A stretch of 54,523 nucleotides of DNA, from sequence record SRR31156797_8021. One strand, given 5' to 3'. Position 1 is the stretch's first letter; each line of letters starts with the position of its first letter. This document shows, piece after piece, positions 12,521 through 16,399 of this stretch. Below the pieces are notes generated by a model. It worked only from the letters and a program-made list of their open reading frames with translations, did no database searches and was not told where the DNA came from. The translations under genes and the position numbers were made by a program.

Positions 12521-12784
12521 ATGAATATATTATTAGAACAAGGTTGGAGTGAAATAGACAGCAAACTGGTTAAAAATTATATTTTAACTAATTTTGTTGA
12601 AGCTGTTAATTTTATCAATTTAATTGCCAACGAAGCCGAAAAAGCTGATCATCATCCAGACATAAAGCTTTATAAATACAAAAATGTTCGGATTACGCTA
12701 ACCACACATTCCAAAAGAAGAATCACAAAAAAGGATATTTCTTTAGCCAAGCAGATTGATAAAATTTTCGATTCTATGAATTAG
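12521..12784 (+). CDS. Pterin-4-alpha-carbinolamine dehydratase (PhhB family)
   Basis: NFVEAVNFIN, ADHHPDI, LTTHS and ITKKDISLAKQID motifs. Confidence 0.92.
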   Translation: MNILLEQGWSEIDSKLVKNYILTNFVEAVNFINLIANEAEKADHHPDIKLYKYKNVRITLTTHSKRRITKKDISLAKQIDKIFDSMN

Positions 12785-13624
12785 TTATCGGATCATTAAA
12801 CCCTTATTGTAAGTTCCCAATATGGTCATTTCTTTAGCAGATTCTGATATTTTATTCATTACATTTTTAAATTGACTTGGCAACTCAAATTCTAAATCCA
12901 CATGAAAAAAATATTCCCAATTTACTCCAGGGATAGGTAACGATTGTATCTTAGATAAGTTTATTTTCTCTTTTGCAAAACAATCTAAAATATGTGATAA
13001 ACTTCCAGGTTTATGACTGGTACTAAAATAAAGTGAAGCTTTTGTAAATCCACCATTGGGTTTTACATCCTGGCTACGTTTTAAAAGAAAAAAACGTGTC
13101 TGATTATTCTTTATGCTCTCAATTTCGTGTGCAATTATTTGCAATCCATATAACTCAGCAGGCAAGTCACCAGCTATGGCTCCAATTCCCATCAAACCGT
13201 TTTCGCTAATATTCCTAGCACTTATTGCAGTATCCTCAGTTTCAACCAATTTAATATTAGGATAATCCCTAAAGAAAGCTCTACACTGATTAATTGCCAT
13301 TGGGTGAGAATGAACCTCCTTCAAATCTTCAATTTTCTGACCCGGTAAAACCATTAGATTCTGCTTGATGCGAAGATAAATTTCTCCTTCTATTACTAAA
13401 CCTGAATCTTGTAATAATCCGTAATTCTGCAAAATACTTCCGGCTATAGAATTTTCCATTGCCATAATACCTCCATCACAAACATTTTCATCTTGTACTA
13501 AATCTACCAATTTGGCAAAATTCTCTGCTGGAATAATTTCAACATCTTCGCCATAATAAGCATTTGCCGCAATGTGGTGAAAGCAACCTTCTACTCCTTG
13601 AATTACAATTTTTCTTTTGTCCAT
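12785..13624 (-). CDS. pheA: Prephenate dehydratase
   Basis: IQGVEGCFH, MENSIAGS, SHPMAINQC and NQTRF motifs, plus a C-terminal ACT domain (HKPGSL, NLSKIQSLP). Confidence 0.95.
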   Translation of the reverse strand: MDKRKIVIQGVEGCFHHIAANAYYGEDVEIIPAENFAKLVDLVQDENVCDGGIMAMENSIAGSILQNYGLLQDSGLVIEGEIYLRIKQNLMVLPGQKIEDLKEVHSHPMAINQCRAFFRDYPNIKLVETEDTAISARNISENGLMGIGAIAGDLPAELYGLQIIAHEIESIKNNQTRFFLLKRSQDVKPNGGFTKASLYFSTSHKPGSLSHILDCFAKEKINLSKIQSLPIPGVNWEYFFHVDLEFELPSQFKNVMNKISESAKEMTILGTYNKGLMIR

Positions 13625-13653
13625 GGTTATTTTGATTTTCGTTAGATTTTATC

Positions 13654-13682
13654 AAAAAAAAAGTCCTGTTAAAAACAGGACT
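13654..13682 (-). terminator. Attenuator terminator 2 (pheA-proximal)
   Basis: Minus strand AGTCCTGTT-TTT-AACAGGACT followed by a T8 tract, about 30 nt before the pheA ATG. Confidence 0.88.
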
Positions 13683-13702
13683 CTTTATTGTGTATTTTAA
13701 AT

Positions 13703-13783
13703 TTATACCGTTAGAATCCTGTCCTTCTCGTTACCAAAAAAGAAAAAGCTAAAAAAGAAGATATGGAAAAATACGGTTTGCAT
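13703..13783 (-). CDS. Phe-rich leader peptide 2 (pheL-like), MQTVFFHIFFFSFFFFGNEKDRILTV
   Basis: 26-aa ORF with 9 Phe codons. Contains GACAGGATTCT, complementary to the 5' arm of terminator 2. Confidence 0.85.
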   Translation of the reverse strand: MQTVFFHIFFFSFFFFGNEKDRILTV

Positions 13784-13789
13784 ATTATC

Positions 13790-13817
13790 AAAAAAAAAGA
13801 GCCTTTTTAAAAGGCTC
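13790..13817 (-). terminator. Attenuator terminator 1 (promoter-proximal)
   Basis: Minus strand inverted repeat GAGCCTTTT-A-AAAAGGCTC followed by T9. Confidence 0.85.
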
Positions 13818-13854
13818 AGTAAATATTTTATCACATACAAAACCCTTTCTAACA

Positions 13855-13902
13855 TTACATGCTAAAAAAGAAAAATCGCTTTGTATGAGTATTATTTGTC
13901 AT
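13855..13902 (-). CDS. Phe-rich leader peptide 1 (pheL-like), MTNNTHTKRFFFFSM
   Basis: 15-aa ORF with 4 consecutive Phe codons, 21 nt downstream of a -7 box and upstream of terminator 1. Confidence 0.8.
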   Translation of the reverse strand: MTNNTHTKRFFFFSM

Positions 13903-13923
13903 TGTTACTTAATTAAACTATTC

Positions 13924-13931
13924 CAAAGGTA
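13924..13931 (-). promoter_or_regulatory. Bacteroidota -7 box of the pheA leader transcript
   Basis: TACCTTTG on the minus strand directly upstream of leader 1. Confidence 0.65.
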
Positions 13932-14044
13932 AAAATTAATTTTAATAATTTACTCTTCTTTGTCTGAAGTCATATTAATTTCTAATAATTTCGTCGAATT
14001 TTAATATCTTGAAAATAAATTTGAAATCAACAATGCACCATTAT

Positions 14045-16399
14045 ATGAAAAACCTAATTTTAATACTTCTTATTCTTCTGGGCTTTAATATTACCCAGGC
14101 ACAATCCTCCAAGGAGTTTTCAGTAGCGATTTTGGCTGATAGAAACATTACCGATACAGAGCACATTTTAGAACGTCTCAAAAGTGAGATTAAGTCAGTC
14201 GTTGCACAAGAAGCTAAAATTGTATTCAGTTCAAAAAATTTATTACTAAATGATTTGGATATGAATAAAGCCAAATCTAATTTTCAAACTGTATTAAATG
14301 ACAATAATGTAGATTTGATACTTTCTTTTGGAGCTCTGAACAATTATGTAATTGCACAAAATAAAGAGTTTAGCAAACCCATTATTCTATTCGGGGTTAT
14401 TAATGATGATTTTATCTCATTTCCTGAAAACCAAACAACATCAGAATTTTCAAATCTTACCTATATTCTTACTCCTAAATCTTACGAAAAAGATTTAAAC
14501 GAATTTCGAGAACTGTATCCTTATAAAAAAATTGGTATTATAGTAGACCAATATCTCACAGAAATCTATCCTGTTAATTCAACATTAGATAGAATTTTCG
14601 ACAATATTAATGCTGATTACAAACTCATACCAATAACAACTCTTAGTGATATAAATGGTATGTTAGATGACATTGATGCTGTATACGTATCTGGAGGTAT
14701 GTTTCTTCCACAAAACGACCAAGAGCAATTAATTCAAAAAATAAATGATAAAAATCTTCCTTCATTCTCGTCTATTGATGAAAAATTTGCTGAATATGGA
14801 GTCTTAGCAACTTCGGTACCCGTAAATAATTTGGATCAGTTTTTTAGAAGAATTGCCCTAAATATTGAAGCAGCTGTAACTGGAAGTAATTTATCTGAAT
14901 TGCCAATATATTTAGATATTGATACTAAATTATTACTTAATATTGAAACTGCTTTTAGTATTGATTTCCCATTAAAATACAGTTCTCTTATTAATACCAA
15001 TATTATTGGAGATGCAGATAAAATTCCATTTCAAAAGAAATACTACATCAACGATGTGATATATCAGTTATTGGAAGAAAATATCAATTTAAAAGCCGAT
15101 AAATTAGATGTAAGCCTAGCAACTCAGGAAGTTAAATTAGCTAAAAGCGAGTATCTTCCAAATGTAACCACTTCGGTAAGTGGAACTCATATTGATCCTG
15201 ATTTGGCTGAGGTTTCAAATGGTTCTAATCCGGAATATTCAACGAGTGGCAATATAAATGTTGAACAAGTCTTATTCTCGGAGCAAGCAAGTGGCAATAT
15301 TAAAATTCAGAAAGAACTGGAAAATGCTAGTAAGGAAAATTACAATGCAGTTGAAAAAGACGCGATACTTGATGCGGGTGTCATTTTCTATAATTCCCTA
15401 ATTGCCAAAGCCAATTATCTCATTAATGATGAAAATCTTCGGGTTACCAGGAAGAATTACGAGATAGCTCAGCAAAATTATTCTGCAGGTGAAACAGGAA
15501 AGTCGGATGTTTTAAGATGGAAAAGTGAACTGGCTGTTGCTACCCAAAATCTTGTAAGTACGTTTACAAACTTTAAGCAAAGTATAAATTCTTTAAATCA
15601 AACCTTAAATAATCCTATCGAATATAAAATTGATATCAAACATTCTTTGGTAGATGAAAATGCCAAAGATGAGTTTAATTACAAAGGATTAATACAACTT
15701 ATAGACGACCCAATACTTAGAAGCAAACTTCTGAGCTACCTGGAAAAAATTGCTATTGAAAATGCACATGAATTGAAATCTTTACAATTCAATATTGCGG
15801 CAAGCGAGCGTACACAAAAGCTGTATCAGCGAAGTAAATTTCTTCCTACTGTTGCATTACAAGGTGGATACAATCACACATTTACTCGTGATGGAAAAGG
15901 TAGTTCCTATCCAACAGGTTTTGCAACACCACCCGATGGTTATTACAATATAGGATTGCAGGTAAGCCTTCCGATTTTTAATAAAAATCAAAGAAATTTA
16001 AATCGTCAAAAATCCTTTATACAAAAAGACCAACTTCTCAAGCGAAAAGAAAATACCGAAAGTGTAATTCGACAAAATGTAAATGACATTGTATACTCAT
16101 TATTGAGTTTATATACCAATATTGAATTGTCGAAACTATCGACCGAAGCAGCTAAGGAAAGTTTAGAATTGATGCAAATATCATATTCTAACGGAGCCAT
16201 AGGAATTACCAGTTTAATTGATGCTCAGCAAGCTTATTTTCAAGCTCAGCAACAACAAGCAAGTGCTGGATATAATTTCTACCTAACACTATTACAGATG
16301 GAAAGAATCCTTTCTTACTACTTCTTTTTGAATGCAGATATTGACAATCAAAATTTCATTTCAAATCTGCAAAACTATTTATTGAAACCAACTAATTAA
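14045..16399 (+). CDS. TolC-family outer membrane efflux protein with N-terminal ABC-substrate-binding-like domain
   Basis: Signal peptide from ATG 14045 (MKNLILILL...AQ). The C-terminal ~450 aa has TolC/OEP repeats (AKSEYLPNV, SKFLPTV, VSLPIF). The domain call for the N-terminal ~320 aa is inference. Confidence 0.85.
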   Translation: MKNLILILLILLGFNITQAQSSKEFSVAILADRNITDTEHILERLKSEIKSVVAQEAKIVFSSKNLLLNDLDMNKAKSNFQTVLNDNNVDLILSFGALNNYVIAQNKEFSKPIILFGVINDDFISFPENQTTSEFSNLTYILTPKSYEKDLNEFRELYPYKKIGIIVDQYLTEIYPVNSTLDRIFDNINADYKLIPITTLSDINGMLDDIDAVYVSGGMFLPQNDQEQLIQKINDKNLPSFSSIDEKFAEYGVLATSVPVNNLDQFFRRIALNIEAAVTGSNLSELPIYLDIDTKLLLNIETAFSIDFPLKYSSLINTNIIGDADKIPFQKKYYINDVIYQLLEENINLKADKLDVSLATQEVKLAKSEYLPNVTTSVSGTHIDPDLAEVSNGSNPEYSTSGNINVEQVLFSEQASGNIKIQKELENASKENYNAVEKDAILDAGVIFYNSLIAKANYLINDENLRVTRKNYEIAQQNYSAGETGKSDVLRWKSELAVATQNLVSTFTNFKQSINSLNQTLNNPIEYKIDIKHSLVDENAKDEFNYKGLIQLIDDPILRSKLLSYLEKIAIENAHELKSLQFNIAASERTQKLYQRSKFLPTVALQGGYNHTFTRDGKGSSYPTGFATPPDGYYNIGLQVSLPIFNKNQRNLNRQKSFIQKDQLLKRKENTESVIRQNVNDIVYSLLSLYTNIELSKLSTEAAKESLELMQISYSNGAIGITSLIDAQQAYFQAQQQQASAGYNFYLTLLQMERILSYYFFLNADIDNQNFISNLQNYLLKPTN

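Follow-up and report, generated by a model that had tools for sequence, protein, structure and literature searches.

Does the pheA gene of this DNA stand behind two complete phenylalanine-sensing attenuators, and if so, do the two act in series on one transcript? The window analysed here is the whole stretch of 54,523 nt (sequence record SRR31156797_8021), in which a gap of 420 nt between pheA and a divergent TolC-like gene holds a promoter-like box and both putative attenuator units. Read on the minus strand, the order is the -7 box, leader 1, terminator 1, 6 nt, leader 2, terminator 2, 29 nt and the pheA ATG (Table 1). A preliminary description of the sequence had proposed two such units behind one promoter-like box, and every coordinate that it gave for the box, both leaders and both terminators was right. 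Its central claim, that these are two complete leader-peptide attenuators, is supported by the anatomy, the predicted folds, the conservation and the covariation described below. We suggest, with a probability of roughly 0.8, that the locus carries two independent ribosome-mediated transcription attenuators, both sensing Phe-tRNA and arranged in series behind one promoter ahead of pheA.

Table 1. Positions of genes, leader ORFs and predicted RNA elements at the pheA locus of the window
Feature	Position	Strand	Remarks
TolC-like outer-membrane gene	from about 14046	+	PF02321; divergent from pheA
-7 box TACCTTTG (TAnnTTTG)	13924..13931	-	21 nt 5' of leader 1 ATG
Leader ORF 1 MTNNTHTKRFFFFSM	13855..13902	-	15 codons, 4 Phe; ATG 13902, TAA 13857-13855
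Unit 1 region 1	13859..13887	-	5' arm of 1:2 hairpin; overlaps last Phe codons; MFE fold
Leader 1 Phe codons	13875-13864	-	overlap unit 1 region 1
Unit 1 region 2	13834..13855	-	alternative partners: region 1, or terminator 1 5' arm via AAAGGGUUU
Unit 1 antiterminator AAAGGGUUU:GAGCCUUUU	13848-13840:13817-13809	-	
Terminator 1	13790..13817	-	stem 13817-13799, U9 13798-13790; consensus scan
Leader ORF 2 MQTVFFHIFFFSFFFFGNEKDRILTV	13703..13783	-	26 codons, 9 Phe; ATG 13783, TAA 13705-13703
Unit 2 region 1	13755..13777	-	5' arm of 1:2 structure; overlaps codons 3-10
Unit 2 region 2	13707..13729	-	inside leader ORF 2
Unit 2 antiterminator AAGGACAGGAUUCU:AGAGUCCUGUUUUU	13726-13713:13684-13671	-	
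Terminator 2	13654..13686	-	stem 13686-13658, U run to 13654; consensus scan
pheA, prephenate dehydratase, 279 aa	12785..13624	-	PF00800, E 1e-51
Pterin-4a-carbinolamine dehydratase gene	12521-12784	+	PF01329; convergent on pheA, ends at adjacent bases (12784/12785)

The gene downstream of the two units makes the amino acid in which the leaders are rich, as is the case for classical attenuators, since pheA encodes prephenate dehydratase. The gene is monocistronic here, and no same-strand ORF follows it in any of the five clade loci checked (the clade is defined below). Pterin-4a-carbinolamine dehydratase, encoded on the far side of pheA, usually partners phenylalanine hydroxylase, so genes for the synthesis and the catabolism of Phe may be neighbours at this locus.

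By folding, each unit offers the classical alternatives 1:2, 2:3 and 3:4, of which the antiterminator and the terminator are mutually exclusive. The whole leader folds with z -3.8, unit 1 with z -3.9 and unit 2 with z -4.1, and in both units the structure consists of a hairpin over the Phe codons (1:2) and a terminator (3:4). When the terminator 3' arm was removed in silico, region 2 paired with the terminator 5' arm in both units. The RNA folding that had been put forward as a check of the proposal thus comes out in its favour, as anti-antiterminator, antiterminator and terminator are all predicted in each unit. The unit 1 antiterminator has an energy of -10.4 kcal/mol and z -1.5, and judged in the window alone it is predicted to be weak. 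For unit 2 the pairing exists as had been claimed, although it extends over 14 bp and not over the 11 bp first reported (-16.9 kcal/mol, z -5.3).

The two units differ in how the leader lies relative to the antiterminator. Leader 1 stops at the 5' edge of region 2, before the antiterminator arm, and with the ribosome footprint of 12–15 nt past the A site described in PMC3641672, a ribosome on the leader 1 stop would cover that arm. In unit 2 the antiterminator arm coincides with codons 20–24 of leader 2, and the stop codon comes just after region 2. The leader 1 stop also overlaps an ATG (UAAUG, 13855) that opens a frame of 50 codons running through terminator 1 into leader 2. We rejected this frame (13855-13703, minus strand) as a real ORF; it is closed in a relative with 98% identity (L001), and because it is not kept there, it is probably due to chance.

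How often such an arrangement would be met by chance was judged in several ways. A consensus terminator scan gave four matches in 3 kb against 1.1 expected, and called the hairpins of both units on the minus strand. A detector that required an ATG-started ORF of 6–45 codons with at least four Phe/Tyr in eight, followed within 110 nt by a terminator, found two units over the whole window on both strands, and these were exactly the two 5' of pheA. Its background, measured on loci outside pheA upstream regions, amounted to 13 units in 897,278 strand-bases (0.0087 per 600 nt), while at least one unit was detected in 94 of the 124 distinct pheA upstream regions. These 124 regions were left after dropping identical or short ones from 79 related pheA loci and 59 loci around the Ancylomarina longa genome. 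Leader peptides of other amino acids were also sought across the window in a generic scan, which gave nothing convincing. In the genomes of five relatives, a search for further Phe leaders with the motif common to both leaders, which is not a full census, led to 15 loci, of which 13 were without units and only two, both pheA loci, were positive.

The clade of the window, which comprises Marinifilum and Labilibaculum, is represented by 21 distinct relatives whose pheA is 66–98% identical to that of the window, and the tandem layout is found in 20 of these marine bacteria, Marinifilum fragile and M. flexuosum (L004, L007) among them. Leader 1 is in frame with four to five consecutive Phe codons in all 21 sequences, the window included. 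Its N-terminus is variable (MTNNTHTKR, MNRVHTNR, MNNNIHIGR, MRQQLNSKR) and the Phe run is constant; in the Marinifilum fragile group this run is longer by exactly three T, an indel of 3 nt that keeps the frame. An ATG-started, Phe-rich frame for leader 2 is present in 20 of 22 sequences. In L010 leader 2 is degenerate, with four scattered Phe, and in L129 the ATG is replaced by ATA, leaving only a GTG in frame; the two terminators persist in each, and these changes may reflect either a relaxation of the second gate or sequencing errors in the metagenome-assembled genomes (MAGs). Terminator 1 lies at the matching place in 21 of 21 clade sequences and terminator 2 is present in the clade relatives, both judged sequence by sequence as MAFFT misaligned the 3' arm of terminator 1, the loop lengths of which differ. 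The possibility raised in the preliminary description, that relatives might keep the T-runs and lose the reading frame, is not what we see, as the frame persists in 21/21 sequences for unit 1 and 20/22 for unit 2. The same alignment of pheA upstream regions revealed conserved Phe runs and compensatory changes in both antiterminators, for which the preliminary description had proposed to look.

Two side observations concern insertions. Four Labilibaculum-like genomes (L114:1-3834, L115, L116, L118) have 94–215 nt inserted exactly at the leader 2 ATG, at offsets -270 to -155 upstream of pheA. ATGAAA is repeated at the two ends of the insertion, which has an internal hairpin (TCCCGAAAGCTTTCGGGA in L114) and is present in two copies in L116; it has the appearance of a small mobile repeat inserted between the attenuators, with both of them left intact. 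A Marinifilum MAG (L005:1290-1500) has about 200 nt extra between terminator 2 and the start of pheA.

The pairings were followed through the relatives with structures derived from the fold of the window itself, and this choice favours that fold in the controls with a slide of 1–3 columns. For the 1:2 stem of unit 1, 85.7% of the cells were paired against 48–57% when slid, and for the 2:3 pairing of the same unit 86.1% against 35–76%; the corresponding values for unit 2 were 73.5% against 43–54% and 84.9% against 37–57%. Both antiterminators had the highest pairing of all registers tried. The covariation score was reached by 0 of 500 shuffles for the 1:2 stem in both units and by 2 of 500 for the unit 1 antiterminator, and as the relatives are close kin these shuffle controls overstate the support. 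For the unit 2 antiterminator the score is unexceptional, as 218 of 500 shuffles attained it. Individual changes can be followed in both units: in the unit 1 antiterminator, columns 74/115 hold GC in 10, AU in 6 and GU in 5 sequences, and the unit 2 antiterminator has both-sided changes at four pairs. In unit 2 of L112 three substitutions come together, regions 2 and 4 each having G>A and region 3 having C>U, and L130 carries a re-matched GGGGCAGG:CCUGCCC. When the sequences were folded singly, all 21 formed the unit 1 antiterminator (-8.2 to -14.1 kcal/mol) and all 22 that of unit 2 (-8.9 to -19.5 kcal/mol).

These data bear on the best surviving rival to two working attenuators, namely that unit 2 alone regulates pheA and that unit 1 is a decaying duplicate of it, or a passive insulator terminator that lowers transcription. 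In Ancylomarina longa (L002) the only unit is of the unit 2 type and immediately follows TACCTTTG, it is the antiterminator of unit 1 that is weak in the window, and TTCTTTTTTAGC occurs in both leaders, a common word that would agree with a duplication. On the other hand, the frame, the Phe run, the stop position, the 1:2 stem and the antiterminator of unit 1 are all kept in 21 of 21 sequences, with compensatory change in addition, and they are kept even in L130, the pheA of which is only 66% identical. We take this to mean that unit 1 is not a decaying copy, and we regard regulation by unit 2 alone as improbable. That A. longa has a single unit and that leader 2 of L010 is degenerate does indicate that some lineages can do without the second gate. 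In the pheA gene tree the clade has a support of 100/100, the tandem-bearing L130 is sister to the rest, and L002 falls in an unresolved fork among tandem bearers. The simplest history is then a single loss of unit 1 in the L002 lineage, which this gene tree with its midpoint root weakly suggests. As an observation apart, the single leader of A. longa (L002:1332-1476) has a TGA stop before region 2, as has leader 1 of the window; leader 2 of all tandem genomes, unlike that of L002, would be translated through region 2 to a conserved TAA.

Serial action of the two units presupposes a shared transcript. The box upstream of leader 1 fits TAnnTTTG, which we take to be the -7 promoter box of the Bacteroidota. 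On the minus strand of the intergenic region between pheA and the TolC-like gene, TANNTTTG occurs once, at 13931-13924; it is not enriched across the window (88 matches versus 81.7 expected), so the promoter call rests on conservation. A script placed the end of the TAnnTTTG box 18–24 nt before the leader 1 ATG in 20 of the 21 clade sequences, and in L010, where it had picked a farther ATG, the box was found by eye. Between the leader 1 ATG and pheA the motif is absent from all 21 clade sequences (L010 again read by eye), also where 94–215 nt are inserted between the units. A transcription start between the two units, which had been named as evidence that would speak against serial control, thus appears unlikely as far as this motif can tell. 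We also considered whether the U run ahead of leader 2 conceals a promoter (TTTG) and rejected this, the sequence being TTTAC in most Marinifilum relatives.

It follows from the same observations how unit 1 fares as a separate small gene, for either a peptide of 15 residues or a short RNA that has its own terminator, with unit 2 and pheA transcribed from a second promoter. The four relatives that tolerate the insertion show that the units need not adjoin, as such a gene would allow. However, the distance from the U run of terminator 1 to the second start codon is only 5–15 nt in 17 of 21 sequences, the TAnnTTTG motif is missing between the units throughout, and no conserved TTTG follows the U run. 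A contig from an RNA library of a close relative, corresponding to 13662-13811 and continuing into unit 1, also bridges terminator 1, which is only a hint since the contig could be DNA; the RNA contigs are short and of low depth, they leave unit 1 uncovered at 13834-13931, and such contigs cannot show 3' ends. We consider a separate gene with a second promoter highly improbable and favor two attenuators on one transcript.

We propose the following mechanism for these two attenuators. A single transcript would begin a few nucleotides 3' of the TACCTTTG box and meet both of them before pheA, and in each a ribosome would translate the short Phe-rich ORF. If Phe-tRNA is plentiful, the ribosome would reach the stop codon and cover region 2, the 3:4 hairpin would form and transcription would end. 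If Phe-tRNA is scarce, the ribosome would halt on the Phe codons and mask region 1, whereby the 2:3 antiterminator could form and the polymerase could read through. If the leader is not translated at all, both 1:2 and 3:4 would form and transcription would likewise end. In unit 1 the stalled ribosome would leave the antiterminator arm free and the terminating ribosome would cover it, and in unit 2 the arm would be covered by a ribosome that has moved past the Phe codons. As the units are in series behind one promoter, pheA would be made only upon read-through of both. Such serial gating should make basal expression lower and the response steeper, the read-through of the two gates would be expected to multiply, and the difference between 4 and 9 Phe codons could set different thresholds. 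The last point leads to the suggestion that the units are not equal gates and sense different states (e.g., Phe-tRNA versus general translation capacity) or have clearly different Phe thresholds, for which the codon counts speak, together with the fact that leader 1 stops before the antiterminator arm while leader 2 runs through it; as both leaders are enriched only in Phe and the sequence carries no sign of a second signal, we think there is very little chance that this is so, and it would in any case be a refinement of serial attenuation and not a true alternative to it.

Related units are also found beyond the clade. Single Phe/Tyr-rich units lie 5' of pheA in samples of Saprospiraceae, Flavobacteriaceae and Bacteroidales, and tandem units 5' of pheA were found in at least nine loci of Bacteroidota outside the clade (L049, L086, L090, L092, L098, L109, L132, L136 and L138). 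In these nine the distance from the first U run to the second ATG is 10–31 nt, and every unit folds as a 1:2 hairpin plus a terminator. In MAGs of Saprospiraceae/Chitinophagales (L032, L035, L037, L038, L048, L054–L059) we observed a conserved short ORF rich in Phe, Tyr and Trp, for example MKLNQSTFAAFYFWYFYFKIE, about 100–160 nt before pheA, with no terminator called by the detector; these ORFs may belong to a weaker terminator or to a translational mechanism.

The codon content of the leaders goes along with the content of the operon. In nine of nine loci checked, Phe/Tyr leaders precede pheA followed by a gene for an aminotransferase, a DAHP synthase-chorismate mutase or a prephenate dehydrogenase, and in five of five loci checked the Phe-only leaders of the window's clade precede a lone pheA. 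In L130 the gene next to pheA, 187 nt further on, encodes a methyltransferase. That leader codons track operon content across these loci (L013–L138) means that the regulatory logic could be used for predicting how a pathway is wired.

Taken further, the data suggest a more general reading. Serial leader-peptide attenuators for the same signal could be a selected and recurrent architecture, the translated counterpart of tandem riboswitches, which would have been ancestral to the Marinifilum/Labilibaculum clade, would have arisen or been kept in several other lineages of Bacteroidota, and would give pheA a two-stage, near-digital response to Phe-tRNA charging through gates of 4 and 9 Phe codons with different thresholds. 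We lean towards this reading, by a small margin over doubting it.

The units are readily compared with known systems. The E. coli pheL-pheA and pheM-pheST systems are single leader-peptide attenuators that combine a short ORF rich in Phe with alternative hairpins and an intrinsic terminator. The present units resemble pheL and pheM in having a Phe-rich short ORF, 1:2, 2:3 and 3:4 hairpins and an intrinsic terminator before a gene of the Phe pathway, and they differ from pheL in that two of them stand in series, that the host belongs to the Bacteroidota and that no Shine-Dalgarno-type signal is visible. Ribosome binding in the Bacteroidota is known to differ from the E. coli model. The Rfam model Phe_leader (RF01859) gave weak full-length matches, with 22.6 bits (E 0.63) for unit 2 and 19.5 bits (E 3) for unit 1, and since both are far below the gathering threshold of 55 bits there is no detectable homology to this family. 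We infer that both units work like pheL yet stand outside the Phe_leader family. To annotators the locus offers a pair of small ORFs and a pair of 5' terminators, all of them overlooked by gene callers and Rfam.

To our knowledge, leader-peptide attenuation is known almost entirely as single units in Proteobacteria, and the present locus would extend it to the Bacteroidota. A Flavobacterium transcriptome study reported "strong clues" pointing to leader-peptide attenuation in the upstream regions of amino-acid operons; in Flavobacteriaceae it also described, ahead of pheA, a conserved 5' element with no match in Rfam (PMC9723704). The Flavobacteriaceae MAGs in our sample have single Phe/Tyr units before pheA, and the part of PMC9723704 that we considered does not mention a doubled unit, in contrast to the two units found here.

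A parallel to the doubling is the Salmonella mgtCBR leader, which has been described as containing "tandem attenuators", mgtM and mgtP, two short translated ORFs that act independently, each on alternative stem-loops and on whether elongation proceeds into the coding region (PMC3641672). The two sense ATP and proline through stem-loops unlike intrinsic terminators, and the authors called the arrangement "a singular example" (PMC3641672). The likeness lies in two leader ORFs within one leader; here, however, Phe is the residue enriched in both ORFs and each of them is followed by an intrinsic terminator, and the pair is not of the mgtCBR type. The statement in the preliminary description that a serial pair of classical leader-peptide attenuators was not known to have been described must be narrowed accordingly: it stands for pairs sensing the same amino acid, of which our literature search found none, and falls for tandem leader-ORF attenuators as such, since mgtCBR is published. 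Our literature search, outside the scope of which lay the 2004 attenuator comparison by Vitreschak and co-workers, returned no paper on two leader-peptide attenuators for the same amino acid in series, and in the portion of Naville and Gautheret (2010) that we drew on, a tandem terminator is mentioned only for rimP (PMC2965389). The putative mechanism is thus a textbook one and the doubling is not; what is conserved is the pair, with a function that is putative as judged from comparative sequence data.

Same-ligand tandem riboswitches and tandem T-boxes are known, and the present arrangement resembles them in that two complete sensors, each controlling a terminator, stand in series in one 5' leader. 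In 13000-14600 there was no match to any riboswitch or T-box model at E up to 10, and whereas the sensors of those systems are RNA aptamers or tRNA-binding RNAs, those proposed here are translated ORFs. Tandem riboswitch sensors in one leader are exemplified by metE of B. clausii in the cited parts of PMC3641672. From a conserved doubling for a single amino acid it would follow that cells stack translated sensors as they do riboswitches and T-boxes, and tandem Phe leaders would offer a natural system for asking whether stacking sharpens or tightens the response.
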